From contig CAWJUT010000025.1 of assembly GCA_963846105.1 (NCBI GenBank), positions 341,579 through 405,578 of the forward strand: a stretch of 64,000 nucleotides of DNA, written 5' to 3'. The position numbers were made by a program, and so were the translations under genes. The notes below the pieces were generated by a model. The model had not been told where the DNA came from, searched no databases, and was given only the letters and a program-made list of their open reading frames with translations. The DNA comes from an uncultured delta proteobacterium (GTDB lineage Bacteria; Desulfobacterota; Binatia; UTPRO1). Positions 19,265 to 41,099 of this stretch are shown piece after piece (position 1 is the first letter of the stretch; every line of letters starts with the position of its first letter).

Positions 19265-20739
19265 TCACTCGAGGCCGAAGACCGCGTCGGTGACGTCCGA
19301 GCCGATGGTGAGCGCCGCGTCGCCGAGGCACGTCGGGTCGGGCGTCTCGAAGAGGCAGCCGAGCAGCCCGGTGGTGTCGCTGCAGGTGCCGATCCGTGCA
19401 TCGACCTTGGACTGCGCGGTCGCGATGTCGCCGGCGAGCGCGCTGGCGCAATCGACCGGCATCGCCGCGGTGATGTTGTCGACCTCGCAGCGGCCGAGCA
19501 GCTTCTCGATGCGATCGATGCCCGTCTGGATGCCCTTCAAGAGCCTCTTCTGACAGCTCCCGGCGGCACTGCTGCCGGCGGTGTTGAGGGGAAGATCCGG
19601 CGGCGTCGTGCCGACGGCGGCCGCGAGCATCGCTCCCGTCGCCTCGTTCTGGCGACATTCGAGGCAATCGACCAGCGCCGTCATGCTGGTCAGGTTGATC
19701 GCGCCGCATCCGCCGCCGCACGTGGGGGGCATGCCGAGAAGGGAAGGTGTGAGGCCGCTGCCGGTGCAGAGCGCGTCGTGGCTGCCGCCGATGTTGGCGT
19801 GGAAGCGCGCCGCCGCCTGCTGGATCTTCAAGTCGCGCGCGCCGGCGTCGCACGCGAGGCCGTTCACCTCGTCGAGGTAGCAGCGTCCGAACTCGCGGAG
19901 ATGCGTCTTGCCGTAGCGGCGGGTGGCGCGCTCGACCTGGCGAAGACAGGCGGCCCGGCTCGCCGGCGGTGCCACCACCGGGACGAAGCTGATGGCGTTG
20001 ATCGGCACGTCGAGCGTGCCCTCGTCGGGATCGTCGGACTCGATGCGAAGCGTTCCCGAGGCGATCACGACGCTGGCGGGCGTGAACGTCACGTCGATGG
20101 TGATGCTCTGGCCGAGTGGAATGTTGAGCGGCGCCGGCGGCCCGCTCACCGCGAGCGAGCTGTGCGCGCCGGCGAGCAGGCCGTAGGAGTTGATCGTGAT
20201 CGGGGAAGTCGCTGCCGTTGTTGAACACCTGGACGGCGACCGTTCCGACCTCGCCCACCTCCGTGATCATGTTGACACTGGAATGCGAGATCCGGATGTC
20301 GAGCGGCTCCAGGCACGACGCGACCATCGGGGTGATGTAGGTGTGATAGTCGGGCGGCGCGTCGATGGCGTCGAAGAAGTTGTTGCACGAGTAGCCGGGC
20401 AGCGTCATGAAGGTGAGGATCTCGTCGACGTTGGTGAACCCGTCGCCGTCGGTGTCCATGCCCTCGACGTCTTGCAGCGACTGGTTGATCGTCTTGCCGA
20501 GGTAGAGCTGCTGCTCGACGGCGTTGCCGTACGGATTGCGCGCGCCGGTGCCCGTCCAGCGATAGTGACAGCGTACCGCACGCGTTGAGGTTGTCGCCGG
20601 GGCCGATGCCGTAGGTGCTCGTGAAGACGTCGAAGTACGTGGGCCGCGCCTGCACCGTCGCCGATGCCGCCAGCACCACGATCGCGATCGCGGCGGCGAC
20701 CGCGTAGCGGACGCCGTTCCGGCTCGTCATGGGTAGGCC
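19265..20739 (-). CDS. Secreted Cys-rich protein with a Ca-binding DTDGDGFTNVDEI motif and a C-terminal C-x-K...LK-x4-C module (two or more frameshifts)
   Basis: Signal peptide MTSRNGVRYAVAAAIAIVVLAASATVQA at 20739. Spans frames 20146..21249, 19230..20459 and 19265..20149. C-terminus CLRQVERATRRYGKTHLREFGRC...CQKRLLKGIQTGIDRIEKLLGRC. Confidence 0.5.
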
Positions 20740-23147
20740 ACCCCCGTGAAGCCGGGCGCCAGGCCGCCGATCGCCGCCTCCATGCATGCCCGTGTCGCCG
20801 CGACGGTGCCGCTCGTCGCGCAGCCGGCGAGACCGCTCAAGTCGTCGCAGCTCGCGATCCGCGCTTCCGCTTTCGCGGCCGCTTTGGCGATGTCGCCGTC
20901 GGGGTCGGTGGCGCAGTCGACGACCGGATCGTTCGCGCCCGTTTGGTTCGCCTCCTCGCATTTCGCGAGCGTCCGCGTCCACCCGTTCGCGAGACCCGTC
21001 GCGGCCTTCGAAAGCGCGTGCTGGCACGACTGCGCCGCTCCCGGCAGCGTCGCCGGCACGGCCGGCGGACGCACGCCGTAGGCGGCTTCGAGCGTCTCCG
21101 CGCCGAGAGCCTCGGCCATGCAGACCGCGCACGACGCCAGGTCGTTCATGTCGAACAGCGACGTCGTCGGCGCACGGGACCGGGCAGGTCGCGCCGTGGC
21201 CGAGCGTGATCGGCGTCAGGTTGCTGCCCGCGCAGCGCCGATCCTTCAAGCCGCCGATCTTCTCGCGGAGCTTGGTCTCGGCGGCGGCGATGCGCGCGTC
21301 GCGCCCGATGGCGTCGCAGGTGAGACCCGACGCTTCGGTCTGCGTAGCACTTCGCCCACTCCTTCAGGTACTTCGTGCGCAGACGCTGGTGCAGGCGTGC
21401 GAGCGTCTTGTGGCAGCGGTTCACGGCGGTCGCGTCCGACTCGACGAAGGCGTGCGCCATCGCGACCGGCTCGGACTTGTTGTGTTGGTCCCACAGGTCG
21501 AAGAGCACGTTGCCGGCGGCGGTGGTGACGTTCTCGTCGCGCAGGAACTCGACGTACTCGCGCGACGCCGTCTGGTAGTAGAGCGTCACCTCGGCCTGCA
21601 CCGCGGACGGTCCCACCGGGTAGACCGCCTCGTCCCAGTACTGCCCGTCGGCGTAGGTCGCGCCGACCGGCTCGCCGTCGAACGCCTCGAAGGCGGCGTT
21701 GGTGAAGCCGCGCGGCGGGATGCGGTTGTCCTTCACGCGGACGTTGTTCAGCACCAGATGGAGGCTCGGTCCCGCGGGCTGCCCGAAGAGCGCGGCGACG
21801 GTCGGGCTCATGCCGTGCATCGTCTCCCACACGTGCAGGTAGGGATCGTAGTCGGCGTCCATCGGCACGGCGTCGTAGCCGAGCAGATCGGCGGTGGCGA
21901 AGACGTAGCGCCCGGACTCGAAGACGACGGCGCGCTCGGCGTCGAACGCGCGCACGTGCAGCCACATGCGCCGGCCGTCCGGGTAGCCGGTCGGCAGCTT
22001 GTGGCCGGTCTCGTTCGTGACGCGCACCGTCAACGTGCCGCCCGCGAGCGTCAGCGAGAGCGTCGCGGCCTTGCGGAGCATGCTTCGGTCGCCTTGGCGA
22101 CGGTCTCCTGCAAGAGCGCCGCGTCCACCTCGCCGCCGAACGCGGGATGGTGCGGCAGGACGTCGGGAATGAAGGTGTTGCCGCCGACGAAGTCGTGCAG
22201 CGGCACGTCGTCGCGCACGGTGCCCGCGGTCGGCGTCGTTGCCGTCGACGGCCGGCATGTGGCAGTCCTGGCAGGTCGAGACGACGGTCGCGGTTGCGGC
22301 CGAACTGCGGCGCCGAGACGCCGGTCGCCGCGTACTCGCTCGCCGCCCACTCGTCGTAGGTCGACTGCTCGGGGAAGCCGAGCGTCGGATCGCCCGGCGT
22401 GTCGAGGGCGTTGAGCTCGTACTCGCCGCAGCATGTTGCGGGTGAACGCCGGATTGCGGACGTTGTGGCAGGTGCCGCACATGTCGGCGCTGCGATGGAA
22501 CGGCGAGACGAGTGTCTCCGCCGTCGGCTGGTGCGGATCGAAGCCGAGGTCGGCGATGACGTCGAAGGGTCCGCGCAGGCGGTCGAGCGGATCGATCACC
22601 ATCATCGCCGAGCCGAGCGTCGGCACCGGTGCCGTGAGCGCCGCGAGGATCGCGGCGTCCTCGGGCGGGTTCTCGGCGGCCGCGAACGGATCGACCAGGC
22701 GATGGCAGACGCGGCACTGGACGCCGTGGCGATCGTCGGCGGTCATCGCCGAGCCGTCCTCGGGCACGGAGCGTCCCTCGAGCCAGCCCTTCGGGTAGAT
22801 GGCAGCGCAGGCAGGTCTCGCCGGAGTGCGGCGAGGTCCTGGTTGGCGACCGCGAGCGCCGCCAACATCAGCGGATCGCGCCCGGACTGCGCCATCATCG
22901 AGCCCTGCCAGCCGCGGAACGGCTCGACGGCTGGCAAGCCGTAGTTGGCGTGGCACGGGGTGCAGGTTCGACGGCGCGAGGAAGTTGTCGGTGATGGTGA
23001 GCGGCTGCGTGCCGGGCAGGTCGGAAATCGTTGATCGTGGTGGGGTAGGGCGCAGCGCCGGCGACGCTCGCGACGGCGAGGAGAGAAGAAGGGCGGGGAG
23101 CGCCGTCAGCGCTCCCCGCGCTCCTGGGTCCGGTGGTGGTCGTCATG
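20727..23147 (-). CDS. Secreted multiheme c-type cytochrome with at least 4 CxxCH motifs and a C-terminal Cys-rich module (three or more frameshifts)
   Basis: N-terminus MTTTTGPRSAGSADGAPRPSSLLAVASVAGAAPYPTT at 23147. Heme motifs CTPCH, CRVCH, CGTCH and CQDCH occur in three different frames (22743..22937, 22051..22956, 21146..22717). Other motifs: FRGWQGSMMAQSGRDPLMLAALAVANQD and TNETGHKLPTGYPDGRRMWLHV. C-terminal CHKTLARLHQRLRTKYLKEWAKC plus ORF 20727..21149. Confidence 0.55.
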
Positions 23148-23163: not shown

Positions 23164-25116
23164 ACGACTGCCCTGCTTACGGGCAGTCGTTGTCTGCGAG
23201 GAGCGCGCTGCTGAACGTCACGTTGCCGTCGAAGCAGTTGCCGTGATCGACGCCGCAGGCGCCGCCGGGGCACTCGGAGCCGTCGGCGCACGCGGCGCCG
23301 TCGTTGCTGCCGCCCACGCAGCGACTCCTCGAAGATCACGAACAGCAGATCCGCGGAGAGCGGCGTGTCGTTCGGCGGCGTGGTGTCCGGGGCCTGCGGC
23401 GTTGAACTGCAGGATGTTGTCGAACACGTCGTTGTCGAAGGAGGCCTGATCGGGGCTCGTGGGACTGAAGACCGGCGAGCCGGCGAGCGCGTTGATCGCC
23501 TCCTGGTCGACGACCGCGAGGCCGAACGAGTTGTTGTTGGTGATGATGTTGTGGTGGATGCTCGTCGTGTCGGTCGAGAGCATGAGCATGCCGGTGCCGT
23601 CGGGGATGAGGCCGACGGTGCCGCTGCCGACGTTCACGATGTTGTTCGCGATCGAGACGTTGTTGAAGATCTCGTGGTCGTTCGAGAGCTGCACCGGCAG
23701 GCCGGGCAGCTTGAAGATCAGGATGCCGCCGGCTGTTGCCCGTCGCGTAGTTGTTGTGGACGCTGGCGTTCGCCGAGTTCTCGATCTCGATGCCCGGCAG
23801 GGCTGGCGGTCGCCGTGTTGAAGCGCAGCGTGATGTCGGTCGACTGGCCGACGTAGATCGCGGCGTCGAGGACGTCGGTCGCGAAGCAACCCTCGACGAG
23901 GACGTCGTCACTCTCGACCGGGAAGATCGCATAGGTGGAGTTGGCGTTGCCGTCGCCGATGATGTCGCGGAACGACACGCCGAGCGCGCCCTGCACGAAG
24001 ATGCCGTTGTCGTCCCAATCGAAGACCTCGAGGCTCTGGAAGTGGAGCCCGTTCACGCCCGCCGCGAAGATGCCGTTGGAGTCGGGAGGCGTGCCCGGCG
24101 GAATGATGCGCGGCCGGTCGCCGGTCGCGCCGCCGCAGCCGACGATCTGGAGGTTGTCCTGGCCGACGTTGATCGTGATCTCCTCGGCATAGTCGCCGGA
24201 CCCGAGCAGGATCTTGTCACCGGCCGTGGCGCCGCTCACCGCCGTGCCGAGCGCACCGGGTCCGTTGGCGACGAACGTCCCGGTCTCGCCGTACTGCTGC
24301 CCGACGGTGTCGAGGGCGCGTGTCCAGCCCTCGCAGACGACGCACGCCTGGAGGCCGGGGATCGTATTGTGACCGGCGCACGAGAAGATGGTGTCGAGCG
24401 CGCCGAAGAGCTGGGCTTGCTCGCAACCGCCGGCGACCTTGGCTTCCGCTTTCTCCTGGAGCTTGGCGAGCTTCTCGGCGGCCTTCGAGGTCGGTCGGGG
24501 GAACGAACGAGCCTCCCGACCACCCACCGATGCAGATCGGCGCCAGATTGCCCGCCGTGCCGAGCTTCATCTGGTTGTCGAGGCACTTGCTGATCGTCTT
24601 GATCGCGCCGATCGTGTACTTGATGCCTTCGCCCTGGATCTTCTTGATGCAGGTCGCTCTGCCGGGCTCGTTCGAGTACTGCGCCGGCGTGCCGGTCAGG
24701 ATGCCGAGCAGGACGTCGGCGGTCGCGTTGTGCTGTGACAGCATGCAGGTGCCGATGACGCTGTCGTCGGTGAGGCCCGAATAGGAGGAAGTAAGACCTC
24801 CCTGGACGGTGTCGTCGCCGCAGTCGGCCGCGATCTTCTCCGCCGCCTTCAAGACCGGCTTCTCGATCTTGGTGACGTCGTCGGGCTCGGGGCAGAGGCC
24901 CGGAACGCCTTGCAGCATGCACTTGCCGAGGGTCTTGAGCTTGGTCTTGTAGAACTTGGTCGCCACCTTGGCGATCGTCTTCTGACACTTCACCGAGCCC
25001 GGATCGGCGCTGAAGATGGCTGGCGCCGTGCTGTCGGGACACGTGGCGAGAGCGAAGGCGCTGGCGGGCATCGCAAGGACGGCGGCCAGGCTGACGGCCA
25101 GGGCGGAACGGCTCAT
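23164..25116 (-). CDS. Secreted right-handed beta-helix protein with an N-terminal C-x-K-x-I...LK-x4-C module (frameshifted)
   Basis: Signal peptide MSRSALAVSLAAVLAMPASAFA. CQKTIAKVATKFYKTKLKTLGKC. Beta-helix repeats GDYAEEITINVGQDNLQIVG, NNIVNVGSGTVGLIPDG and HHNIITNNNSFGLAVVD. Spans frames 24217..25116, 23718..24527 and 23218..23889. Confidence 0.6.
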
Positions 25117-25364
25117 GGGGAATCCTCCTCTTCGTGGAATCGGCGGTTGGCTTCGGCACCACTGGCGGCACGGCAGAGAGGGGCACCAGTAGTAGGCACA
25201 TAGCGTAGATGCTCGGTCGCTGTAAAGGTGTGGCGTTCGTTGGCAGGCGGCTTTCGCGTCAGTTGAAGGGTCACAGGTCCGCAGCGGCGGCGGCCGCGTC
25301 GAAAAAGGTGGAACCGACGCTAGCGCCCGTGCTATGGCCCATGCTCTCAGAGGAGGTCCCCCTC

Positions 25365-26972: not shown

Positions 26973-27035
26973 GTCGATTTCGTTTGACCCACGCCGCGCC
27001 AATGCGGCAGCATCGGCGCGAGGAGAGATCGAGCC

Positions 27036-28148
27036 ATGCATGACCGTCGACGCGGCCTGACCCCGCTCGTGTTCGCCATCGCAGCGACGTTCGCCACCGC
27101 CGCAAACGTCCACGCGTTCTCCGGGGGCATCACGACCTTCAGCTTCGGCGCCGGCGGATGCAACTCGTGTCACTTCGGCGGCACGATCCCGACAGTGATG
27201 CTGACCGGGCCGACGACGGTGCTGCCGAGCTCGTCCAACGAGTTCACGTTCCAGGTCTTCGAGGTCGGGTCGCAGACGCATGCCGGTCTCAACGTGTCGG
27301 CGCTCGACGGCGTGCTCACCACCGGCGGCGGCAACTCCGCCAACACCCAGGTGCTGGTCGGAACGGGCTCGCGCAACGAGATCACGCATACGGGGCCCAA
27401 GATGGCGGCCGCGGGTGTCACGACGTTCTCCTTCTTCTGGACGGCGCCGGCCTCGTTCAACAACATATCGCTGAACGCGTGGGGAAACGCGGTCAACTTC
27501 AATGGCACTTCCGCGGGGGACGCCGCGCAGTTCGCCAGCCTGGAAGTACTGAACGCGCTCGGCACCACAACGCCGACGCCCACTCCGACGGCGACGCCGC
27601 TCACCTGCGACGCGGCGCCGATTGCCGGCTGCCGGACGCCCGCCATCGGGCAGAAGGCGTTCCTGCTCTTGAAGGATCAGCCCGACGACAACAAGGACAA
27701 GCTCATCTGGAAGTGGATCAAGGGCTCGGCGACGGCGAAGGTGCCGGACTTCGGAACGCCGCTCACGACCACCGACTACCTCCTCTGCGTCTACGACGGC
27801 ACGTCGACCAAGATCGCGGAGGGGCTCGCACCGGCCAATGGTCTCTGCAACGCCTCGAACCCGACCGCCTGCTGGTCCGACAAGCCGACCGGCTTCAAGT
27901 ACAAGGACAAGGATCTCACGCCCCACGGCTTGCAGCAGATCCTGCTCAAGGAGGGGTTGGTCGAGAAGGCGAAGATCATCGTCAAAGGGAAGGGCCTGAA
28001 TCTGGATATGCCGTCCATGCCGGTCACACAGCCGCTCACCGTTCAACTGAGGAACGGCGCCGGCGTCTGCTGGGAGGCGGTGTACAGCTCGCCGGCGATC
28101 AAGAACGAGATGGGGCCGCCGGGCTTCTTCAAGGACAAGGCCGACTGA
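27036..28148 (+). CDS. Secreted protein: N-terminal monoheme (CxxCH) beta-sandwich-like domain, PT linker, and the shared ~165-aa C-terminal domain
   Basis: Signal peptide LTPLVFAIAATFATAANVHA. GCNSCHFGG. TTTPTPTPTATP linker. C-terminus CRTPAIGQKAFLLLKDQPDDNKDKLIWKWIKG...LCVYD...PTACW...KGKGLNLDMP...VQLRNGAGVCW...FFKDKAD. Confidence 0.6.
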   Translation: MHDRRRGLTPLVFAIAATFATAANVHAFSGGITTFSFGAGGCNSCHFGGTIPTVMLTGPTTVLPSSSNEFTFQVFEVGSQTHAGLNVSALDGVLTTGGGNSANTQVLVGTGSRNEITHTGPKMAAAGVTTFSFFWTAPASFNNISLNAWGNAVNFNGTSAGDAAQFASLEVLNALGTTTPTPTPTATPLTCDAAPIAGCRTPAIGQKAFLLLKDQPDDNKDKLIWKWIKGSATAKVPDFGTPLTTTDYLLCVYDGTSTKIAEGLAPANGLCNASNPTACWSDKPTGFKYKDKDLTPHGLQQILLKEGLVEKAKIIVKGKGLNLDMPSMPVTQPLTVQLRNGAGVCWEAVYSSPAIKNEMGPPGFFKDKAD

Positions 28149-28184
28149 TATTGGCGGCAGCCGCGCGCGTCATGTCATGAGTAC

Positions 28185-29354
28185 GTGACCATGGCGCGCG
28201 CGGAGCTCGACGTCGATCTCTACGACGACGCGGCGATCGTCGATCCCTATCCGCTCTATCGCGAGATCCGCGACCGCGGGCCCGCGGTCTGGCTCTCGGC
28301 ACACGGCGCCTGGGCGATCGGACGCTTCCACGACGTCCGTGCCGCCTTGCTCGCGGACGCGCGGCTGATCTCCGGTCGCGGGGTCGCGATGAACGAGGTC
28401 GTGAACGGCCAGGTCTCCCGGGTGACGCTCACCACCGACGGCGACGTGCATCGGCAGTTGCGCGGCATCTTGATGAAGCCGATGACGCCGAGCGCGATCC
28501 GCGAGATCCAGGCCGAGGTCCAGCGGCTTGCCGATGAGCTCATCACGCGGCTGGCCGCCCGGGACTCGTTCGACGGCATCGCCGATCTCGCCCAGGAGCT
28601 GCCGGTCGCGGTGGTCTCGCATCTGGTGGGACTTCCGGACGACGGCCGACAGCGCATGCGGGCGTGGGCGGCGGCGACCTTCGACGCGCTCGGCGCCATG
28701 AACGCGCGCGCGGAAGGGGCGTTCGCGATGCTCATGGAGATGGTCGTGTACGCGCGCAAGCTCGAGCGGCGGCACCTGCGGCCCGACGGCTGGGCGGCAC
28801 GCTTGTTCGACGCCGCCGATCGGGGACTCGTCGACGCGGGCGACGTCCCCGGCATGTTGATCGACTACATCGCCCCGAGCCTCGACACGACGATTCTCGG
28901 CACCGGTCATCTCCTGTTCCAGCTCGGCCGGCATCCCGAGCAATGGGATCTCGTGCGCGCGCGTCCCGAGCTGATCGCGCGCGCCGTCGACGAGGCGCTG
29001 CGCTTCGAGACGCCGGTGCGGGCCTTCAGTCGCGTGTGCGCGGACGACTACGACGTCGACGGCACGCTGATCCCGGCCGGCGACCGGGTGCTCATCGTCT
29101 TCGCGTCGGCCAACCGTGACGAGCGTCGCTACGCCGATCCCGACCGCTTCGACGTCACGCGCGACGCCAAGGATCACGTCGGCTTCGGGCACGGGGTGCA
29201 CCGCTGTGCGGGCGCGTACGTGGCGCAGCTCGAGATGCAGTCGCTGCTGCGCGCCATGGCCGAGCGCGTGCGCCGCATCGAGGTCGCGGCGCCCGTCCTC
29301 GCCCTCAACAACGTGCTGCGCGGCTACCAGAGCTTCCGCGCGTCCTTCGGCTGA
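28185..29354 (+). CDS. Cytochrome P450
   Basis: Heme-binding loop FGHGVHRCAGAYVAQLE. ETLR and PxRF regions present. Confidence 0.9.
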   Translation: MTMARAELDVDLYDDAAIVDPYPLYREIRDRGPAVWLSAHGAWAIGRFHDVRAALLADARLISGRGVAMNEVVNGQVSRVTLTTDGDVHRQLRGILMKPMTPSAIREIQAEVQRLADELITRLAARDSFDGIADLAQELPVAVVSHLVGLPDDGRQRMRAWAAATFDALGAMNARAEGAFAMLMEMVVYARKLERRHLRPDGWAARLFDAADRGLVDAGDVPGMLIDYIAPSLDTTILGTGHLLFQLGRHPEQWDLVRARPELIARAVDEALRFETPVRAFSRVCADDYDVDGTLIPAGDRVLIVFASANRDERRYADPDRFDVTRDAKDHVGFGHGVHRCAGAYVAQLEMQSLLRAMAERVRRIEVAAPVLALNNVLRGYQSFRASFG

Positions 29355-29417
29355 GGGCGGGGTCGGTTGGCGACCGTTTGCTCGGCGCCGCCTTTCGGCA
29401 CATAAGCGTCAGACGCG

Positions 29418-30760
29418 ATGACGACGACGTTTCAGGAGTTCAAGCTCATTCCGGCGCTGACCGAGGCGGTGGCGGACATGGGCTACACCCGTCCGACGCC
29501 GATCCAGGCCGAAGCCATCCCGGTCGGCCTCGCCGGGCGCGATCTGATCGGCTGCGCGTCGACCGGCACCGGCAAGACCGCCGCCTTCCTGCTTCCGATC
29601 CTGCAGCGCATGCACACCGGCGCGCGCGGGAAGTGCCGCGCCCTCATCCTCTCGCCGACCCGCGAGCTGGCCATGCAGATCGACGAGCAGGCGCTGGCGA
29701 TCGGCTACCACGTCGGCATCACCGCGGTGTCGGTGGTGGGCGGCGTCGACATGCGGCCGCAGGAGCGCGCGCTGCGCGCCGGCGCGGAGCTGGTGGTGGC
29801 GACGCCGGGCCGCCTGCTCGACCACATGCGTTTCGACTACGTCGATTTCTCCGCCGTCGAGGTGCTGGTGCTCGACGAAGCGGATCGCATGCTCGACATG
29901 GGCTTCCTCCCCGACATCCGCCGCATTCTGCGCGCGCTTCCCGACCGAGCGACAGACGCTGATGTTCTCGGCGACGATGCCGCCCGAGATCCGGCATCTC
30001 GCGGGCGACATCCTGCGCGATCCCGTGACCGTCATGGTCGGGGAGTCAGAAGCCGGCGAGCGGCATCGTGCAGAGCGTCTACCCGGTGGCGCAGGAGCGC
30101 AAGGCGCCGCTCCTCACCACGCTGCTCAAGCGCGAGGCGATGCGCTCGGTGCTGGTGTTCGTCAAGCGCAAGGCGGATGCCGACCGCCTGGCGCGTACCG
30201 TCACCCGCAGCGGCGTGCCCGCGACCAGCATCCATTCCGACCGCCGTCAGGAGGATCGGATCGCGGCGCTCGAAGCGTTCCGGCGCGGGCAGTACCCGGT
30301 GCTGATCGCCACCGACGTGGCGGCGCGCGGCATCGACGTCGAGGGCATCTCGCACGTCGTCAACTTCGACGTCCCGTTCTCGCCCGACGACTACATCCAT
30401 CGCGGCGGCCGCACCGCGCGCGCCGGCGCGGTCGGCGAGGTGCTGACCTTCGTCACGCCCGAGGAAGAGCGCGATCTGCTCGCGATCGAGAAGACGATCG
30501 GCAGCACACTACCGCGCGTCATCGTGCCGAATTTCGATCACGGCACGCACGAGCACGTGCCACCGCCGACAGCGGGCTTCCACGACCGGCGGCGGAGTGG
30601 ACGCGGCGGGCGTGGACGTGAACGGGGGCGCGGCGCGCCCGCGCCCGCGACGCCGCACGCTGCGAGCACCGGTGACGGTGGCGCGCCGAGCCGTCCGCGG
30701 CGCCGGCGGCGGCGTGGCGGCCGGGGCGGCGCGACCAACGCCCCATCGGCGAAGGAGTAG
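29418..30760 (+). CDS. DEAD-box ATP-dependent RNA helicase with an Arg/Gly-rich C-terminal tail (two frameshifts)
   Basis: Q-motif, GTGKT (Walker A), VLDEADRMLDMGF (DEAD), SAT (ERLMFSATMP), HRGGRTARAG. Spans frames 29418..30305, 29962..30621 and 30068..30760. Confidence 0.8.
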
Positions 30761-30767
30761 TACCGCG

Positions 30768-31793
30768 ATGGCAGGTCGTCGATCGCGTGCGCCGCGCGGC
30801 GGGGCGCGACCTCTACGACATGTCGCCCGGCGCGGCCGGTCCCGCAAGACAGCCGCGCCAAAGCGCGCGCGCCCGCGCACGCCGCGCCGGCGCGAGACGG
30901 CCAGCGCGAAGCGCGCGCCGACCGTGCGGCTCGGTATCGTGCAGATGCGCTGCGGTCCGGATCCGCAACGCAACCTCGAGGTGGCGATGCGCCACGTTCG
31001 CGCCGCGGCGGCGCGCGGCGCGGAGATCGTCTGTCTCCCCGAGCTCTTCCGGTCGCAGTACTTCTGCCAGGCCGAGGATCACGCCAACTTCGCGCTCGCC
31101 GAGCCGGTTCCGGGACCGACGACGCACGTCCTCGGCGATCTCGCGCGCGAGCTCGGCGTGGTGATCGTGGCGTCGCTCTTCGAGCGCCGCGCCGCGGGCG
31201 TCTATCACAACACCGCCGCCGTGCTCGACGCCGACGGCGCCATGGTCGGCAAGTACCGCAAGATGCACATCCCGGACGACCCGCTCTACTACGAAAAGTT
31301 CTACTTCACGCCCGGCGATCTCGGGTTCCAGGCGTGGCGGACGCGCAAGGCGTGCGTCGGTACGCTGGTGTGCTGGGACCAGTGGTACCCCGAGGCGGCG
31401 CGCCTGACGGCGCTGCGCGGCGCCGAGATCATCGTCTACCCGACCGCGATCGGCTGGCATCCCGCGGAAAAAGCCGAGTACGGCCGCGCCCAGCACGCCG
31501 CGTGGGAGACGGTGCAGCGCGGCCACGCGATCGCCAACGGCGTGTTCGTCGCGGTGCCGAACCGTGTCGGACACGAGACCCCGGTCGGCGGTCCCGGCAT
31601 CGAGTTCTGGGGGCAGAGCTTCGTCGTCGATCCGACCGGACGCGTGCTGGCACGTGCCAGCACCGACCGCGAGCAGGTGCTGGTGGTGGCGTGCGACCTC
31701 GGCGCGCTCGACCAGGCACGGACGCACTGGCCCTTCCTGCGCGACCGCCGGGTCGACGCCTACGGCGACATCACCCGACGGCTGGTCGACTGA
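30768..31793 (+). CDS. aguB: N-carbamoylputrescine amidohydrolase (carbon-nitrogen hydrolase family)
   Basis: GAAGGAG RBS then ATG at 30768. Nitrilase-superfamily motifs: catalytic Cys in VGTLVCWDQWYPE, and E...K. Lies immediately upstream of an agmatine deiminase gene. Confidence 0.8.
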   Translation: MAGRRSRAPRGGARPLRHVARRGRSRKTAAPKRARPRTPRRRETASAKRAPTVRLGIVQMRCGPDPQRNLEVAMRHVRAAAARGAEIVCLPELFRSQYFCQAEDHANFALAEPVPGPTTHVLGDLARELGVVIVASLFERRAAGVYHNTAAVLDADGAMVGKYRKMHIPDDPLYYEKFYFTPGDLGFQAWRTRKACVGTLVCWDQWYPEAARLTALRGAEIIVYPTAIGWHPAEKAEYGRAQHAAWETVQRGHAIANGVFVAVPNRVGHETPVGGPGIEFWGQSFVVDPTGRVLARASTDREQVLVVACDLGALDQARTHWPFLRDRRVDAYGDITRRLVD

Positions 31794-32970: not shown

Positions 32971-34857
32971 ATGGATGGACGCGACCGGACCGCCGGCCGT
33001 GTGGAGGATAGACCGACGCCGAACGTGCCGTCCCACAAGAGCTTTCTGCATCTGCGTGCGCTGCTGATCGCCGCCATCGGTGCGCTGATCGTGGTCGCCG
33101 GCGCGCCTTCGGCGCGTGCCCAGGGGCTTCCCGATCCGGACGAGGCGAAGGCTGCGAGTACGTGTCACAAAGCGATCGGCAAGGCGGCTGCGTCTTTCGC
33201 CAGCAAGAAACTGAAGCACCTCCGCAAATGCATCGACACGGTCTTCGCCTGCGTGCAGCTGAAGAACAGCTCCGTCGAGTGTCTCGACAAGGCCGACGTC
33301 ACCTGCACCAAGGAGTTCAACAAGATCCAGTCGACCGACATTCCCAAGCTCGAGGAGGCGATCGCGAGACGCTGCAGCGCCGACAAGATCTCCTACGACT
33401 CGCTGAGCATGGCGACCGGCGCGGACCTCGACGCGCTCACCAATGAATGCCCGGGTTTGCAAGTCCCGCCGCCGTTCAACTCGCTGGACAAGTACCTGGA
33501 GTGCGTCCGGAAGCATCACGAGTGCAACGCGGAGGAGTTGCTGCGCTACGAGGCGCCGCGTGCCGAGGAGCTGCTCGCGATGGTGAACCATCCGCTGCGC
33601 AGCGACTTCTGCGTGCCGCCGACACCGACGCCCACCCGCACGCGCACGCCGACGCCGACGCGCACCCGTACGCCGACGCCGACCATGACGCCCTCGCTGC
33701 CGCCGTCGACGGAGACGCCCACGCCGCCGCCGCCGACGGCAACCGCCGAGACGCCGACACCCAGCCCGACTCCGACGGAGACGGCCACCGAGACGCCGTC
33801 ACCGACGCCGACGCCTACCAGTACGGCTCCGACGCCGACGCCCACCGTCACGGCGACGCCGAACCCGTTCAACTTCACGTTCGTGACCTCGACCACTGCA
33901 CAACGGCAACCTGGGCGGTCTCGTTCGGCGCCGACGCGATCTGCGCCGCGCGCGCGCTCGACGCCTCGCCGGCGCTGCCTGCCGGGACCTACAAGGCCTG
34001 GCTGTCGACCGACGCCGTCGATGCCTTCACGCGCCTCGGCGGCGGCGCAGGGATTCATCAGGGTCGACGGGACGCCGTTCGCGAACACGGTCTCGGACAT
34101 CGTCACCAACAAGATCTTCAATCCGATCCACCTCGATGAGAACGGCGTCGACGTCGGGCACGGCCCCGGTCTGGACGGGGACCACGAAGAACGGCACCGA
34201 GTCGGTGGGATCCAAGTGCACCGACTGGACGGTCTCGGCGTCGGGCGAGCGGACTGGCGGGCACACGCAAGGCGGACCGGCGTCCTGGACGCAGGATCAG
34301 AACACCGACTGCGTCGGCTCGCGGCGACTGCGCTGCTTCATGGTCGACCGCACCGCCAACCTCGCGCCGCCGCCGGCGTCGGGAAACATCGCGTTCGCGA
34401 CGCTCGCGGGCTTCACGCCGGGAGGCGCCGGGCTGGTCGCGGCCGACGAGCTGTGCGCGAACGAGGCGTCCGGCGGCGGGCCTTCCGGGCACCTACAAAG
34501 CGTTGATGGCGACCAGCACAGCGTCCGCGGCGTCGCGCTTCACCCCCGCCGCCGCCTACGTCCGGCCCGACGGCACTCTGATCGGCTCGGGCGCGAGATC
34601 ACCGCCGGCGGGCATCATCCCGAGCGGCATCTGGCAGACCGCCAACGGCACGTACTGAACAGCGCCAGCGAGGCGGCGTGGACCGGAGCGTCGACGCCGG
34701 GGCCGTCGGCACGCTCGACATCGACCTGCGACGACTGGACACTGACCACTTCGCTCCAGGGCACCTTCGGATTCGCGACCTACGCGATGCGGCCTGGTGG
34801 AACTTCGGCACCCGCAACTGCAACGTCGGACTGCACGTCTACTGCCTCCAGGAGTAG
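32971..34857 (+). CDS. Secreted protein: N-terminal C-x-K-x-I...LK-x4-C Cys module, long Pro/Thr linker, and two tandem DUF1554-like domains (three or more frameshifts)
   Basis: Signal peptide ALLIAAIGALIVVAGAPSARA. CHKAIGKAAASFASKKLKHLRKC. PTPTRTRTPTPT linker. DUF1554 hallmarks FVTSTT..GNLGG..GADAICAA...YKAW.S, VWTGTT...C.DWT, RLRCFMVD, and a terminal HVYCLQE. Spans frames 32971.., 33447.., 34136.. and a fourth. Confidence 0.55.
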
Positions 34858-34995
34858 CGGCGCCTTCTTCGACGGCTGGGTCGTAGGTTCGGTTTCCGAC
34901 CCACGGCCGATCGCTGTCCCGGCTGGACTCAGCGCGGGGACGGGATCACCATACGCGCCGGTCGAACCCATTCCCGCTACCCAAAGGAGAGGCCC

Positions 34996-35601
34996 ATGAA
35001 GCTCTACTACGTTCCGCAGACGCGCGCCGGACGGCCACGCTGGCTGCTCGAGGAGATCGGAGCTCCGTACGAGCTCGTTCGCCTCGACATGTCGAAGGGC
35101 GAGCACAAGAAGTCCGAGTATCTGAAGATCCATCCCCACGGCGTCGTGCCGGCGTTCGTCGACGGTGACGTCGCGATGTTCGAGTCGGCGGCGATCTGCA
35201 TGTACCTCGCCGACAAATTCCCCGAGAAGCGTCTCGCGCCGCCCGTCGGTACGCCGGCGCGCGCGCTCTACTACCAGTGGATGGTGTACACGATGGCGAC
35301 CCTGGAGCCGCCGCTGGTGCAGGTCTTCATGAACACCGTGATGCTGCCGGAGGCCGAGCGCTCGGCGGAAGCGGTGGAGAAGGGACGCACGCAGTTCAAG
35401 GCTGTCGCCGGTGTGCTCGAGCAAGCGCTCAGCGGGCGCACGTTCATCCTCGGCGAGCAGTTCTCGGCCGCCGACGTCATGGTCGGCAGCACGCTGCTCT
35501 GGGCGAACTTCATGGGGCTGGTCGCCGGGTACCCGGCGCTCGAGGACTACGTGAAGCGTCTCTCCGAGCGGCCCGCGGTGCAGCGCGCCCGCGCCGACTG
35601 A
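34996..35601 (+). CDS. Glutathione S-transferase
   Basis: MKLYYVPQTRAGRPRWLLEEIG...HPHGVVPAFVDGD..MFESAAICMYLADKF, N-terminal thioredoxin fold plus alpha-helical C-domain. Confidence 0.9.
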   Translation: MKLYYVPQTRAGRPRWLLEEIGAPYELVRLDMSKGEHKKSEYLKIHPHGVVPAFVDGDVAMFESAAICMYLADKFPEKRLAPPVGTPARALYYQWMVYTMATLEPPLVQVFMNTVMLPEAERSAEAVEKGRTQFKAVAGVLEQALSGRTFILGEQFSAADVMVGSTLLWANFMGLVAGYPALEDYVKRLSERPAVQRARAD

Positions 35602-35996
35602 GCCGCGAGGAAGAGGCGCATCGGGAGCAGCTCGCGCGTCACCGGATTCAGCATCAGACCCAGGCTCTCGAGGGTGAAGGCGCCGAGAAGTGGCGTCGCA
35701 CCCTCGGGGGCGAAGACGACCTGCGAGGTCCGGCCCTTCGTGCCGAGATCGAAGAACGCCTCGCCGACGTCGTAGGCCTGGTGCGTGCCATCGGCGAGCG
35801 TGAACTCCTGGCGTTCCAGCCGGATGATGCCGAGACTCTCCAGCGTGCCAGCCGGCACCGTGCTGTAGATCGCGCCGGTGTCGATGAGAAACTCCAGCTC
35901 GACTGCGCCGAGGTCGGGCCTTCGCGGATTGGACACCCTGACGGAAGTGAAGGTGATCCCCACGGTCGGCACGATAGGAGGTTTGGTTCCCGCCAT
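35547..35996 (-). CDS. Retropepsin-like (clan AA) aspartic protease domain protein
   Basis: LIDTGA active-site motif, ~150 aa. The 3' end overlaps the GST gene, so the end is uncertain. Confidence 0.5.
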   Translation of the reverse strand: MAGTKPPIVPTVGITFTSVRVSNPRRPDLGAVELEFLIDTGAIYSTVPAGTLESLGIIRLERQEFTLADGTHQAYDVGEAFFDLGTKGRTSQVVFAPEGATPLLGAFTLESLGLMLNPVTRELLPMRLFLAAQSARARCTAGRSERRFT

Positions 35997-36096
35997 CGAG
36001 ACTACGAGTACCCCTGTCCGCGGGCCGATGGCAACTCGCCGTTGACGTGCTGGGCGGCCGAGATGCGCCGACCGGCATTGCGTCCGACACGCGGCT

Positions 36097-36612
36097 GTGG
36101 CTATGCAGGGCGCCATGGCAACCAGGAGCGCGCGCCAGCCTCCAGCGAGAAGGAAGGCCCGGCCGAAGGTCGAGCCTCGCGCGATCTACACTCCGCGTCC
36201 ATTGCTCACCCGTGAGGAGATGACCAAGGCGGTGATCGAGCTCGCCAACACGCTCGCGCCGGCCGACATCGATGATCTCTTCGCCGAGGAGCAATCGGTG
36301 CGCGACCGTGCCGCGCGCCTCGATGGTGCGCCGGGACGCCTCCTGCGCGCTCAGCTCGACCTCGCGCTCATGTGTCTACGCGACCATCAGAAACGCACGT
36401 GCCCCCAGATTCCCTTCTACACGATCAGTCTGCTGGCGGCGGGCGTCGCTTATCTCGGCGAGAAGATCGATCTGATCCCGGACGACTTGCCGCACGACGG
36501 CACCCTCGACGACGCGCTCGTGATGGCGATCGCGTTCGAGCTCGCCAAGGATGGTCTGCGCCGCTACTGCACGTGGAAGGGCGTCTCGCTCGATCCTGAC
36601 GCGCAGCGATGA
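36097..36612 (+). CDS. YkvA/DUF1232 family membrane protein
   Basis: DLIPDDLPHDGTLDDALVMAIAFELA matches the DUF1232 motif DxIPDxIPxxGYLDDxxV. Confidence 0.55.
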   Translation: MAMQGAMATRSARQPPARRKARPKVEPRAIYTPRPLLTREEMTKAVIELANTLAPADIDDLFAEEQSVRDRAARLDGAPGRLLRAQLDLALMCLRDHQKRTCPQIPFYTISLLAAGVAYLGEKIDLIPDDLPHDGTLDDALVMAIAFELAKDGLRRYCTWKGVSLDPDAQR

Positions 36613-37426
36613 AGCTCGGCCTCTGTCTCCGCAACATGGGGCCGCAGTCGACCCCTCAGGTCGTGCTCGCATGCGCGCGCGCCGCGGAAGCCGCCGGTCT
36701 CGACGATCTCTGGGTCGCCGACCACATCGCGATCCCGCCGGACAACGCCGAGGGCTCGGGCGGACGCTATCTCGATCCCCTGGCTACGCTGGCATTCCTG
36801 GCCGGCGCGACGACGCGGATTGCGCTCGGAACCGGCGTCCTCGTGCTTCCCTACCGTCCGCCGCTCGCGACCGCCAAATGGGTGGCGACGATCCAGGAGC
36901 TCTCGGGCGGACGTCTTCTCTTCGGCGTCGGTGTCGGGTGGATGGAGCCCGAGTTCCGTGCGCTCGGTGTTCCGTACGCCAAGCGCGCCGCGATCACCGA
37001 TGCGACGCTCGAGTTTCTCCGCCGTTGCTTCGAGCGCGACGAGGTCGAGGCCAACGGGCAGCCGTTTCTCTTCCTGCCTCGACCAGCGCGGCCGCCGATC
37101 ATCGTCGGCGGCGCGCCCCCCACGCGCTGCGGCGTGCCGTCCGCTTCGGCGACGGTTGGATGCCGATGGGAACGGAGCCGAAGGCGGTGCGGGCGCCGAT
37201 CGCCGAGCTGCGCGAGCTCGCCGCGGCGGCGGGACGCCCGGCGCCCGAGGTCGTCCAGCTCACCACCCTGCCGCTCGACGATCCGCCGGCGGCGGCGGCG
37301 TTGGCGCGCGCGTTCGCGGAGGTCGGCGTGACGCGGCTCGCGCACGGCGTGGCGTTATCCCGATGCGGCGGCGTTCGCGCGCGCCGTGGAGGTGATCGCG
37401 GGGCCGGTGCGGGCAGCGCTCGACTA
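36609..37426 (+). CDS. LLM-class (luciferase-like) flavin/F420-dependent oxidoreductase (frameshifted)
   Basis: MKLGLCL...DDLWVADH...RIALGTGVLVLPYRPPL..AKWVATIQELSGGRLLFGVGVGWMEPEF. The C-terminal part continues in frame 36551.. Confidence 0.7.
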
Positions 37427-37448
37427 GTCGGCGTCGCCGACGCGCGCC

Positions 37449-37982
37449 TCAGCGCTCGCGTGTCGTCAAAGCCGCGACGATCGCATCGCACGCCTGATCG
37501 GCGAGCGCGGCCATCTCGTCGTCGGTACGGTCCTGAATGGGATGCGGCACGAAGACGCGCGCCACGTCCGGCATGCCGAGCGCGTCGGCCTGGACCTGCG
37601 CCGCGCCCCGGAACTCGTCGGAGGCGACGAAGACCGCCGGCTTCCCTTCACCCTCGAAGAATGTCGTGTCGTGCACACTGCACGTCGTGCACGACCCTCA
37701 ATCGGCGAGCGCCTCGATCACGAAGTCGCACTGGGTCGCGATCTGCCGGCGCAGGTCCTGCGGCGCCGGTCGCGTGAAGGTGGGCTTGCTGTAGCGCTGC
37801 ACGTCGATGCCGCGCGCGCGCAGGTGCGTCTCGAGGCGATCGAGGAACACGTCGCCGCGCGGCTTGCGGATGTCGAGCAAGCCGACGACGCCGCTGAGCG
37901 CCGCGGGGCGCCGCACCGGCGTCCGCCGGACCGGGCTGCGCTCGTCGGTCGGATCGAGCACGATACGATCACTCATGGGCAA
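37449..37982 (-). CDS. Candidate UGSC-family selenoprotein. The in-frame TGA at ~37698..37700 is read as Sec: ...FVIEALAD-U-GSCTTCSVHD...
   Basis: ORFs 37698..37982 and 37449..37676 are in the same frame, separated only by one TGA. The motif U-G-S-C is created. A 9-bp perfect hairpin (GUCGUGCAC-N10-GUGCACGAC) starts 2 nt after the UGA, consistent with a bacterial SECIS. Confidence 0.5.
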
Positions 37983-38088
37983 ACCTCGCTTGATGGTTAC
38001 GTCTTGCGTGGCGTGAAATGCAAGCCCGCTACTCGTACCCCCGTGCCCAACGTTCCTGATCGCCTGCCACCCGTGCTAGGCTCCGGCC

Positions 38089-38658
38089 ATGGGGCAAGCG
38101 CGCAGGAAGGCAACCTACGACGACCTCATCGCGGTTCCCGAGCACCTGGTGGCGGAGATCATCGACGGCGAGCTCTACACCAGTCCGCGTCCCGCAACCC
38201 CTCACGCGCTCGCCGAGATCGCACTCGGCAGCGTGCTCTTCGATCGCTTCAATCGGCCGACCGACGGCCCTGACGCGCCGGGCGGCTGGTGGATCCTGAA
38301 CGAGCCCGAGCTGCATCTCGGCGAGGACGTGCTCGTGCCTGACCATGCCGGGTGGCGGCGCGAGCGCTTGGCTGTCTTCCCGAAGACGGCCGCGTTCACG
38401 CTCGCACCCGACTGGGTGTGCGAGATCGTGTCGCCACACACGGGCACGCTCGATCGCAAGCGCAAGATGCCGATCTACGCGCGCGAGCAGGTGCGCCACC
38501 TGTGGATCGTCGATCCGATTCTTCGCACGCTCGAGGTCTATCGGCTCGAGGGCGAGCGGTGGGTGGTCGTCGGAGCGCACGGCGGAGCGGAGACGGCGCG
38601 CGCCGAGCCTTTCGAGCGTGTGGAGCTCGACATGGCGCGCTGGTGGGGCGAGTCGTAG
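38089..38658 (+). CDS. Uma2 family (DUF820) putative restriction-endonuclease-like protein
   Basis: ATYDDL..VPEHLVAEIIDGELY.SP.P...H, VPDHAGW, APDWVCEIVSP, YAREQVRHLWIVDP. Confidence 0.85.
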   Translation: MGQARRKATYDDLIAVPEHLVAEIIDGELYTSPRPATPHALAEIALGSVLFDRFNRPTDGPDAPGGWWILNEPELHLGEDVLVPDHAGWRRERLAVFPKTAAFTLAPDWVCEIVSPHTGTLDRKRKMPIYAREQVRHLWIVDPILRTLEVYRLEGERWVVVGAHGGAETARAEPFERVELDMARWWGES

Positions 38659-38671
38659 GCTCCGAGCTTCC

Positions 38672-40306
38672 CTAGACCTCGATCTTCCGCGTCGTCATCT
38701 GCGAGCCCATGTCGCCGGCGACCCAGCCGCCGATGATCGCCGAGAACATGCCGGCGTCGCTGCCGGCGACGACGATGGTGAGCTGGTCGTCGGTGCGGAA
38801 CTTCGCGAGCGGCATGTCGAGCATGGCGGCCGGCGGCTCGCCGGTGATGCCGAAGATCTTGAGGGGCATGCCTTCGGCGCAGCGCTCGTCCGGCAGCAAC
38901 TCGCGGAGCGGCCGCGCCGTCACCGCCTGGATGGCGCGGCGGATCTCGGCCTTGCCCCAGCCGTCGGCGGCGCACTTCTGCACGTGCTCGGGCGCCAGCA
39001 CCAGGACGGCGTCGACCAGCCCATGGAGCTTGTGATGCATGACGGTCGCGAGCGCGCGCTCCAGCGACTCGCAGAGGCTCTGCGCGGTGCGGCTCGCCTG
39101 ATCCATGACGGCCCGCGGCGCTTCACCGGCGAAGAGCGTCACCGTCGAGTCCTCACGCGCGAAGCCGCGCTCGACGTGGAGCGGGTCCCACGGGCTCGCC
39201 TCTTCGTTCTCCGCGAAGCAGTAGGTGTACTTGCCGGGGTGTCCGAGCGTGCACTTGTCGATCTCGCCAGGACGGCCGCCGCCGAGATTGCGAATCACCA
39301 GCGGCAGCGCGCGCCCGATGGTCGCGTTGGCGCGGTTGCCTTGTCCGAGCGCGTTGTGGCCGGCGTTCATGCCGATCGCGTGGCGGATCGGTCCGTTGAC
39401 GATGATGAGCGGCGCCGGGAAGTAGGTCGTGGCGACGACGCCGTGCAGGTTGAAGCGCTCCTCGCACGCCGCTTCGACGCTGGCGAGCACGACCGGGAAG
39501 TACTCCGGCTTGCAGCCCGCCATGACGGCGTTGATCGCCACCTTCTCGACCGTGACCGGCACGAGGTTCGGCGGCACGACGGCGACGATCTCCTGCGGAT
39601 GCCGGCGCGTGCCCTCGAGCATGCGGAGCACGCGGCCTTCGGTGGGCGGTACGATGGGAAGGCCGTCGGTGAGCCCCTTGGCGAAGAAGAGCTCGACGGC
39701 GTCGTCGAGGTCGCCGACCTCGATCCGCCGTGCCACGAGGGTAGCGCCGGCGCGTTCCGCCTCGAGGCGCTTGGCGATGTCGGGATCGAACGTGCGCGAC
39801 CCGCAGCCCGGACGGAAGTCAGGCACGGCGTCGGCGGGGGCGATGATCTCCGGCGCCGCGACGCCGAGCTCGGCGGCGGCCGCGCCCGCGAGCGCGTCGA
39901 AGTCGGCGCGCGCCCAGCCCTCGAACGCCGCCCGGACGTTTCCCGCGAGATCGGTGAGCACCAGAGTGGGGACGACCTCGATCTCGTAGGCCGCCGAGAC
40001 CCGGCACGCCGAGTCATCGAGAAGCGGGAAGCCGAGACCGTGGCGCGCCGCGAAGGCCTCGGTGTCGGCGCGCGCGCTCTGGCAAACGCCGCGCACGCGC
40101 ACGCCCGCCGGTCCGAGGCTGCGATGCAGGCGCTCGACGAGCGGCAGCACCAGCTCGCAGGTGGCGCAATTGTGCTTCCAGAAGACCAGCAGCTCGAGGC
40201 GCACGGCGCCCGCGGCGGTAGCGGCGCCGCTCGCGAACCCATGCGCCGCGCCGCTGAATTCGTCGAGCGTGAAGGGCGGGGCCGCGAGCCCGGGCGCGAG
40301 CCGCAT
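38672..40306 (-). CDS. Fusion protein: N-terminal thioredoxin-fold domain (CxxC = CATC) plus a large uncharacterised C-terminal domain
   Basis: VRLELLVFWKHNCATCELVLPLVERL...VRGVCQS...AARHGLGFPLLDDS (redoxin/TlpA-like). The C-terminal ~400 aa (…CTLGHPGKYTYCFAENEE…) has no family recognised by me. Confidence 0.55.
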   Translation of the reverse strand: MRLAPGLAAPPFTLDEFSGAAHGFASGAATAAGAVRLELLVFWKHNCATCELVLPLVERLHRSLGPAGVRVRGVCQSARADTEAFAARHGLGFPLLDDSACRVSAAYEIEVVPTLVLTDLAGNVRAAFEGWARADFDALAGAAAAELGVAAPEIIAPADAVPDFRPGCGSRTFDPDIAKRLEAERAGATLVARRIEVGDLDDAVELFFAKGLTDGLPIVPPTEGRVLRMLEGTRRHPQEIVAVVPPNLVPVTVEKVAINAVMAGCKPEYFPVVLASVEAACEERFNLHGVVATTYFPAPLIIVNGPIRHAIGMNAGHNALGQGNRANATIGRALPLVIRNLGGGRPGEIDKCTLGHPGKYTYCFAENEEASPWDPLHVERGFAREDSTVTLFAGEAPRAVMDQASRTAQSLCESLERALATVMHHKLHGLVDAVLVLAPEHVQKCAADGWGKAEIRRAIQAVTARPLRELLPDERCAEGMPLKIFGITGEPPAAMLDMPLAKFRTDDQLTIVVAGSDAGMFSAIIGGWVAGDMGSQMTTRKIEV

Positions 40307-40315
40307 GCGCCGCCT

Positions 40316-41099
40316 CAGCGCAGGTGGAAGAGGCCGGAGGTCGGCCCGCCGTCCACCGAGAGCGTCTGGCCGGTCACGTACGACGATGCCTCCGACGCGA
40401 AGAAGATGCACGGCCAGGCGATCTCTTCGACCCGTCCGAGGCGGTCGAGCGCCGTCGAGCGCTCGACGGCGCGGCGGATCTCGGGGGTCGGCCAGGTGCG
40501 ATCGCCGGATTCGGGCGTGTCGATCGGACCAGGGGCGATGCAGTTGACGAGGATGCCGTGGCGGCGCCCACTCGGCGGCGTGCGAGCGTGTGAGGTTGAT
40601 CACGCCGGCTTTGGCGGCGCCGTAGTGACTCATGCCCGGGGAGCCGTCGACGCCCGCCTCGGACGACATGTTGATGATACGGCCGGGGGTCTTGGCGGCG
40701 ATCCAGCGTCGCACCGCGGCGCGCGAGCAGAGAAACGTCCCGGTCAGGTTGATCGCGACGATGGTCGCGAATCCGTTCGGGCTCATCTCCTCGGCGCGCT
40801 GAAAGAAGCTCGCGCCATGGTTGTTGATGAGCACGTCGAGCCGTCCGAAGGCGTCGTAGGCGCGGGCGACCATCGCCTCGACCTGCGCGGCGTCACGGAC
40901 GTCGCAGATCGACGCTCTCGACGGTGCCCCCGCCGGAACGGATGTCCGCCGCCACCGGATCGAGATGCTCGGCGCTGCGGCTGGCGATCAGCACCTGCGC
41001 GCCACGGGCCGCGAACTCGCGCGCGATCGCGGCGCCGATGCCGGTGCCGCCGCCGGTCACGATCACCGCCTTGCCGGCGACACTGAAGGGATCGTGCAC
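40316..41099 (-). CDS. Short-chain dehydrogenase/reductase (SDR) (frameshifted)
   Basis: AVIVTGGGTGIGAAIA (TGxxxGIG), NNHG, S...YGAAK catalytic motif, PGPIDT. Fragments lie in frames 40893..41099 and 38672..40873. Confidence 0.75.

Follow-up and report, generated by a model that had tools for sequence, protein, structure and literature searches.

Several described protein families resemble, in one respect or another, the domain considered here. The DUF4215/TIGR02232 repeats (myxo_disulf_rpt) are Cys-rich, presumably disulfide-bonded segments of exported proteins of Myxococcota-like bacteria. Saposin-like proteins (SAPLIP) and Sol i 2 act outside the cytoplasm and are built of amphipathic helices stapled by three disulfides, and PG_binding_1 (PF01471) is a small bundle of three helices that diverse secreted enzymes carry at one terminus or the other. 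We analyzed a stretch of 64,000 nucleotides from an uncultured delta proteobacterium (contig CAWJUT010000025.1 of assembly GCA_963846105.1; called the window below, with positions counted from its first letter), in which a Cys-containing module recurs in four genes for exported proteins. The original prediction, made from the sequence of the window, had described this module as a Cys-to-Cys pattern with conserved Lys and as a product of domain shuffling within a locus-specific family. The repeated Cys pattern is a genuine homologous protein domain. It is absent from the libraries searched (Pfam-A 2025, NCBIfam release 20, the Protein Data Bank (PDB), and BFVD), with AlphaFold DB, CDD, and Gene3D lying outside the search. 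Its unit is larger than the 23-residue Cys-to-Cys stretch first noticed: a module of about 100 aa, predicted to form three helices, which normally occurs as a tandem pair of about 230 aa. As a working name for the family we use CQK helical di-module.

The window, with a G+C content of about 68%, contains seven modules in four genes (Table 1): one in the gene of a DUF1554 protein, two in a beta-helix gene, two in a gene of the cytochrome family, and two in a fourth gene, called gene C below. All five peptides quoted in the original prediction are present in the six-frame translation, so its claim of a module recurring in at least four secreted proteins holds; the copies B2 and D2 are additional. 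The quoted peptides represent helix 1 of longer copies, each of about 95-150 aa with 5-10 Cys. The first and last Cys of helix 1 (C1 and C23 of the consensus given below) are present in 7/7 copies, and six of the seven satisfy the strict signature. For the genes of the DUF1554 protein, the beta-helix protein, and gene C, signal-peptide-like N-termini were read directly; in the first of these, module A is preceded by such a stretch (...IAAIGALIVVAGAPSARA/QG). The module occupies an N-terminal position in the DUF1554 and beta-helix genes and a C-terminal one in the cytochrome-family gene and gene C. When all 953 stop-to-stop fragments of the window were scored with a hidden Markov model (HMM) of the module, matches were confined to these four genes.

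The relatedness of the copies was evaluated by several methods, for which the B2 and D1 sequences had been rejoined across reading frames. Six matches to the signature C-x3-[ILV]-x-[KR]-x14-[KR]-C are present in the six-frame translation, all of them within the four host genes. In 100 triplet-block shuffles of the window it occurred 0.33 times on average and twice at most, that is, about 18 times less frequently than observed. Pairwise comparison by phmmer linked C1 with D1 (4.8e-10), C2 with D2 (9.5e-10), and B1 with C (0.0019), and gave no match of module A to B, C, or D. HMMs built with one gene left out were then scored against about 955 fragments, and the modules of the omitted gene were the best non-training matches (E values in Table 1). 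Profile-profile comparison by hhalign aligned the A-type profile with the profile of 70 non-A modules over 107 columns, with 97.9% probability and an E of 6.5e-13. Because the HMM E values are significant, the low-complexity origin that the original prediction had offered as its own counter-explanation does not hold.

Table 1. Host genes and module copies in the window, with the helix 1 peptide of each copy and its E value against the HMM built without its own gene.
Feature	Coordinates	Strand	Content	Helix 1 peptide	Helix 1 coordinates	Leave-one-gene-out E
Host gene 1	32971..34857	+	Signal peptide, module A, Pro/Thr linker, two DUF1554 regions			
Module A	33163..33612	+	Single A-type module, N-terminus of DUF1554 protein; in frame; 10 Cys	CHKAIGK...RKC	33163-33231	5.6e-4
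Host gene 2	23180..25116 (low-coordinate end approximate)	-	Signal peptide, B1-B2 pair, parallel beta-helix (TIGR03805/NosD-like)			
Module B1	24691..24987	-	First of N-terminal pair, beta-helix protein; in frame	CQKTIAK...GKC	24919-24987	2.3e-8
Module B2	24285..24651	-	Second of beta-helix pair; interrupted by frameshift near 24483	CIKKIQG...SKC	24583-24651	
Host gene 3	20727..23146 (start approximate)	-	Putative multiheme c-type cytochrome, C-terminal D1-D2 pair			
Module D1	21075..21415	-	First of C-terminal pair, cytochrome-family protein; over three frames (shifts near 21330 and 21160)	CHKTLAR...AKC	21347-21415	2.6e-11 (rejoined)
Module D2	20730..21026	-	Second of pair, C-terminus of cytochrome-family protein; in frame	CQHALSK...AKC	20958-21026	2.2e-12
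Host gene 4 (gene C)	19265..20730	-	Signal peptide, CxxCH-containing N-terminal region, choice-of-anchor-D/ASH-like Ig domain, C1-C2 pair			
Module C1	19610..19948	-	First of C-terminal pair, gene C; in frame; 8 Cys	CLRQVER...GRC	19880-19948	1.8e-8
Module C2	19274..19555	-	Second of pair, C-terminus of gene C; in frame; 6 Cys	CQKRLLK...GRC	19487-19555	3.8e-6

The consensus was derived from an alignment of 74 modules (alignment A2). Helix 1 reads C1-Q-[KR]-x-[ILV]-x-K7-x3-K11-[FY]-x5-K18-x-[LW]-x-[KR]22-C23. In the definition of the family, positions 7, 11, and 18 accept Arg as well as Lys. Downstream of C23 follow a short loop with G30 and the element C36-P-D-A, then helix 2 (K44-I-x-K-A-x2-K51-x4-I56-x3-C60), and after C60 a Gly-rich loop, C75-P, and D...C85-[LV]-x-(C), the last at the N-terminus of helix 3. 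The six conserved Cys, in columns 0, 22, 58, 117, 169, and 226 of A2, are present in 73, 74, 72, 74, 63, and 65 of the 74 modules, respectively, which bears out the earlier observation of further conserved Cys after helix 1. The D-P-x-x-D-C segment noted at the same time corresponds to the alignment only approximately; the conserved element is G-x(4-6)-C-P-D-A. Outside the Cys and the helix-face residues conservation is low, with a mean column identity of 18-22%.

Two more Cys columns, 187 and 229, are facultative; they co-occur in 21 of 22 cases (phi 0.63) and therefore fit an optional fourth disulfide. The number of Cys is even in about 70% of modules and of pairs. To judge from these patterns, the six conserved Cys probably form three disulfides, with the facultative Cys as a fourth pair. 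From helix geometry we predict that C1-C60 and C23-C36 staple the ends of the hairpin of helices 1 and 2 and that C75-C85 joins the loop to helix 3. Conserved Lys are found at K7 (58/74), K18 (54/74), and K51 (56/74). The mean net charge of helix 1 is about +4.3 and that of the remainder about -3.7, and the module as a whole is roughly neutral. A simple polycationic surface binder was rejected because the charge of helix 1 is balanced by the acidic remainder.

The tandem pair is very confidently predicted to fold into one compact all-helical unit. For the C1-C2 pair of the window, AlphaFold2 with an alignment of 30 sequences gave a pLDDT of 95.6 and a pTM of 0.92 and placed 3+3 main helices in the model. 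For module A alone, with 32 sequences, the values were 89.0 and 0.84, and the model consisted of three long helices. Tandem pairs are present in the B, C, and D genes of the window; the DUF1554 gene has one hybrid-like module instead.

How widely is this module distributed outside the window? A profile built from no other copies than those in the window (alignment A1) was scored exhaustively with HMMER against 1.84 billion representative proteins and matched 255 of them at E<=1e-3, 33 at E<=1e-10, and 2 at E<=1e-30; the 294-aa open reading frame (ORF) of the window gene C is itself in the collection searched. A word-indexed homologue search, which is insensitive for this family, returned nothing with module A and six short hypothetical proteins with the 74-module profile. 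In nearly all of the 255 proteins the match consists of two stretches, the tandem pair, and two proteins (P0031 and P0077) have four modules. A locus-specific family, as originally proposed, was thus rejected by the outside proteins and by loci in metagenome-assembled genomes (MAGs). These genomic loci were sampled with a C-type query only, so that they speak for the C-type subfamily, and the genome of the window lies outside the representative set. The MAGs with the five C-type loci bear the labels Myxococcota, Deltaproteobacteria, Thermodesulfobacteriota, and uncultured Myxococcales; most of the remaining family matches come from metagenomes.

The pair lies right behind the leader peptide, at the C-terminus, or internally. 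Where the module is N-terminal, a crude heuristic detected a hydrophobic leader in 75 of 86 proteins. Because the module is found at either terminus and internally, we rejected the idea that it is a terminal signal for secretion or sorting. The domains that accompany the pair are diverse. A Beta_helix/NosD partner was detected in 18 of the 84 proteins scanned and DUF4215 in five of them; ASH/choice-of-anchor D, FG-GAP, galactose-binding-like, and TSP3 domains, a PHB-depolymerase-type esterase, cytochromes, ELWxxDGT repeats, and DUF1554 were detected as well. Many family proteins have no recognised partner domain in Pfam/NCBIfam scans, and some, such as P0072 and P0116, appear to be a stand-alone signal peptide plus tandem pair, with ORF completeness unconfirmed. 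On two points the earlier reading of the window agrees with the homologues: exported proteins whose cores are unrelated carry the module at one end or the other, and the variety of partner architectures is that of domain shuffling. Such architectures clearly point to a pair that has been transferred as a cassette to one terminus or the other of numerous exported proteins unrelated to each other.

The check proposed in the original prediction, a search with a module profile, thus yielded significant homologues, and Pfam and NCBIfam have no family for the module. Scans of the window modules and of full-length homologues against these two libraries gave matches to partner domains only, the nearest Pfam match to the module being Sol_i_2 at a non-significant E of 0.13. 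The pair profile found no match at E<=10 among PDB sequences by hmmsearch. At the level of structure, Foldseek against PDB returned generic helical bundles only (for the pair, E 1.1 at best with TM <= 0.37; for module A, E 0.87 at best), and against BFVD nothing significant. Literature searches on DUF1554 and TIGR03805/TIGR03806/HNE_0200 yielded nothing bearing on the module.

Three of the four host genes belong together. On the minus strand the beta-helix gene, the cytochrome gene, and gene C are adjacent in this order (19265-25116), and the start of gene C overlaps the stop of the cytochrome gene. Their products are a TIGR03805/NosD-like beta-helix protein, a putative multiheme cytochrome of about 810 aa, and a CxxCH/choice-of-anchor-D protein of about 495 aa. 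The same three-gene unit was found in L002 (847-6696, intact and tightly packed), L003, and L007 (7024-12957), and at least the cytochrome gene and gene C in L001, L004, and L005; its neighbours in L002 and L007 are thiE, alr, purH, and purD on the flanks. In L002, L003, and L007 the placement of the pair is constant: the beta-helix protein has it at the N-terminus, the cytochrome and the gene C product at the C-terminus. The idea of local shuffling at this locus must therefore be corrected, since three of the four genes are a conserved operon whose domain layout recurs in other genomes. The pair subtype (B, D, or C) stays protein-specific across genomes. Moreover, the C and D pairs are mutual closest relatives, module by module, and the pair has therefore been copied as a unit.

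The labels originally given to the host proteins stood to different degrees. DUF1554 (PF07588) was confirmed in host gene 1 in two stretches of the frame-corrected C-terminal part (E 1.8e-15, 57.4 bits versus a cut-off of 27.5), and this gene was also delimited by tblastn with P0041. The beta-helix label of host gene 2 was confirmed through its intact homologues, P0025 and L002:847-2787: the Beta_helix match is weak in the window fragment (1.3e-4) and clear in the homologues, and P0025 matches TIGR03805 with 169.9 bits (cut-off 141.5) at residues 292-580, outside its N-terminal pair. The multiheme cytochrome label of host gene 3 rests on homologues, with 44-58% tblastn identity to the L002 cytochrome; its own in-frame fragment matched no Pfam family, and the homologues P0002 and P0015 have several CxxCH motifs with weak, sub-threshold cytochrome matches. 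Gene C has an intact homologue at L002:5209-6696, which also resembles the NCBIfam 'GEGP motif-containing diheme protein' weakly (E 6e-6, far under the cut-off). The N-terminal part of gene C (20300-20560, minus strand) contains one CxxCH and a DTDGDGFTNVDE motif of calcium-binding type (thrombospondin type 3-like, DTDGDG).

The DUF1554 gene differs from its homologues in having one module, while P0041, P0046, and P0143 have a tandem pair. The N-terminal third of module A is like module 1, with 34/57 identities to module 1 of P0046 versus 22/57 to module 2, and its C-terminal third, together with the FC-PTPTPT tail, is like module 2 of the homologues. To judge from its sequence, this single hybrid-like module (33121-33612, plus strand) suggests either that recombination between the repeats truly deleted sequence or that the repeats were collapsed in the assembly. 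Between module A and the DUF1554 part lies a Pro/Thr-rich linker (PTPTPT..., 33615-33840, plus strand), similar to the linker after the pair in P0041 and P0046. The gene stands outside the operon, since the intervening and adjacent genes are ordinary metabolic ones without the module. Those at 25209-31790 (plus strand) and 34858-40987 encode glycoside hydrolase family 1 (GH1), cytochrome P450, carbon-nitrogen hydrolase, glutathione S-transferase, short-chain dehydrogenase, and AhpC/TSA proteins.

The reading frames of the window are frequently broken. Host gene 1 has at least five frame changes (after the linker), host gene 2 about four, host gene 3 about three, and gene C two, and every long gene checked shifts frame 2-5 times (19265-25116, minus strand; 32971-34857, plus strand; 28149-29351; 25209-26969). 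For example, one extra base near 20560 disrupts the C-G-T-C-H heme motif of gene C, and the Pfam matches of the P450 and GH1 genes span only part of their open frames. None of the frame breaks inspected lies at a long homopolymer. Pseudogenisation specific to the locus was rejected as the cause, because unrelated genes of the window (P450 and GH1) appear to be affected as well; the frameshifts are probably uncorrected long-read indels across the contig rather than signs of pseudogenes.

If the pair is an appendage without an evident catalytic role, then we can ask: What does it do for the proteins that carry it? The operon is conserved and every one of its products has the pair, which therefore suggests mutual docking or recruitment to a common site. 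The pair may thus be a non-catalytic adaptor that keeps partner proteins joined, or at a single site, outside the cytoplasm. In the operon, a shared docking module would assemble the beta-helix protein, the multiheme cytochrome, and the heme/Ig protein into a periplasmic or extracellular redox complex. Our overall explanation, in which a real domain absent from the searched libraries forms a tandem helical cassette with a non-catalytic adaptor role, is offered tentatively and seems to us a little short of an even chance; the docking or adaptor function, taken by itself, we regard as possible rather than probable. A bolder version is unlikely on our analysis: the pair would be a self- or cross-recognising docking domain with an apparently new all-helical fold, serving in Myxococcota-like bacteria both the redox machine of the operon and disulfide-stabilised, cellulosome-like surface complexes. 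Several observations weigh against docking. Many members of the family are encoded singly amid housekeeping genes, such as P0041 in L006, without an obvious partner carrying the same domain; the apparent stand-alone proteins P0072 and P0116 fit a binder of a ligand or surface at least equally well; and the operon products could have the domain in common through a common location and not through mutual binding.

The explanation that ranks close behind the adaptor function is an anchor. The target of the pair would be some constituent of the cell envelope or extracellular matrix, whether outer-membrane lipid/LPS, exopolysaccharide, peptidoglycan, or a mineral surface, and secreted enzymes would be tethered through it in the manner of CBM, LysM, SLH, or PG_binding_1. 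In favour of an anchor, the pair is attached promiscuously to one end or the other of exported proteins that are otherwise unrelated, and there are signal peptide plus pair proteins that seem to stand alone. The strongly conserved Lys of helices 1 and 2 would also suit it, and co-localisation would explain equally well why all three operon products have the pair. However, the near neutrality of the module, whose basic helix 1 is offset by the acidic rest, suggests internal salt bridges and not a cationic face. Similarity to known binding modules is lacking in both sequence and fold in the libraries searched, and the gene neighbourhoods examined suggest no ligand. We consider an anchor doubtful.

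The pair might instead be a passive element without a binding partner of its own: a rigid disulfide-stabilised stalk, a spacer, or a cap for folding and stability. The very confident prediction of a compact helical bundle is consistent with this, as are the Pro/Thr linkers that often part the pair from the catalytic region and the low conservation besides Cys and helix-face residues. However, neither the persistence of such an element as a stand-alone secreted protein nor its retention by every product of the three-gene operon, each with a subtype of its own, would be expected, and we think this explanation quite improbable.

A role of the Cys themselves appears less likely by far. The module would then serve in thiol-disulfide redox or metal binding, for instance through the C-x2-C at the start of helix 3 beside its cytochrome partners; the corresponding C-[LV]-x-C at the N-terminus of helix 3 is present in 22 of the 74 modules, and the window has two hosts that are heme proteins or members of a cytochrome family. 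However, this C-x2-C is facultative, and its second Cys co-occurs with another loop Cys (21/22), as would be expected of an additional structural disulfide. A redox-active CxxC is disfavoured because the extra Cys are both facultative and co-occurring. Besides, most partners are not redox proteins, and the module has no similarity to thioredoxin-like or metal-binding families. Finally, the many frameshifts and the weak pairwise similarity of some copies (none for A; B1 with C) might raise the suspicion that low-complexity sequences rich in Cys and Lys resemble each other by chance, or that the frameshifted assembly produced an artefact, but this is of negligible probability against the leave-one-gene-out HMMs, the shuffles and the profile-profile comparison that rejected it, the confinement of the signature to four genes, the intact homologues in other assemblies, and the very high AlphaFold2 confidence.

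An adaptor remains our preferred, tentative reading of the pair. As to its significance, what is new is a domain family that the searched libraries do not cover, whose structure is predicted very confidently and for which no structural relative could be detected. The family would annotate a 'dark' region of about 230 aa in hundreds of secreted proteins from little-studied and largely uncultured lineages of Myxococcota or 'Deltaproteobacteria' type. We place it at the level of a domain of unknown function (DUF) rather than of a new biological principle. The three-gene beta-helix/cytochrome operon with its common domain offers a testable hypothesis for the assembly or positioning of an extracytoplasmic redox complex.

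The known systems differ from the module in distinct ways. DUF4215/TIGR02232 is a short acidic repeat of about 40 aa with another motif; it shares polypeptides with the module in P0048 and P0077, where it matches only a separate C-terminal region, and its Pfam and NCBIfam models gave no match to the window modules at E<=1. In comparison with SAPLIP and Sol i 2, to which there is no significant sequence or Foldseek match, the helices of the module are much longer (30-40 aa) and the unit is the pair. PG_binding_1 has about 60 aa, lacks conserved Cys, and is not a tandem of six helices, and the module has no Pfam match to it. The likeness to the TIGR03805 parallel beta-helix proteins concerns the host protein of the window and not the module. 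Cohesin and dockerin have no relation to the module in sequence or fold, dockerin being a Ca-binding EF-hand-like pair and cohesin a beta-sandwich, and no receptor module complementary to the pair was identified. The resemblance to them is a functional analogy only: dockerin, too, is a non-catalytic appendage at either end of unrelated secreted proteins, and as cellulosomal subunits carry dockerins, so all products of the operon described here carry the pair.

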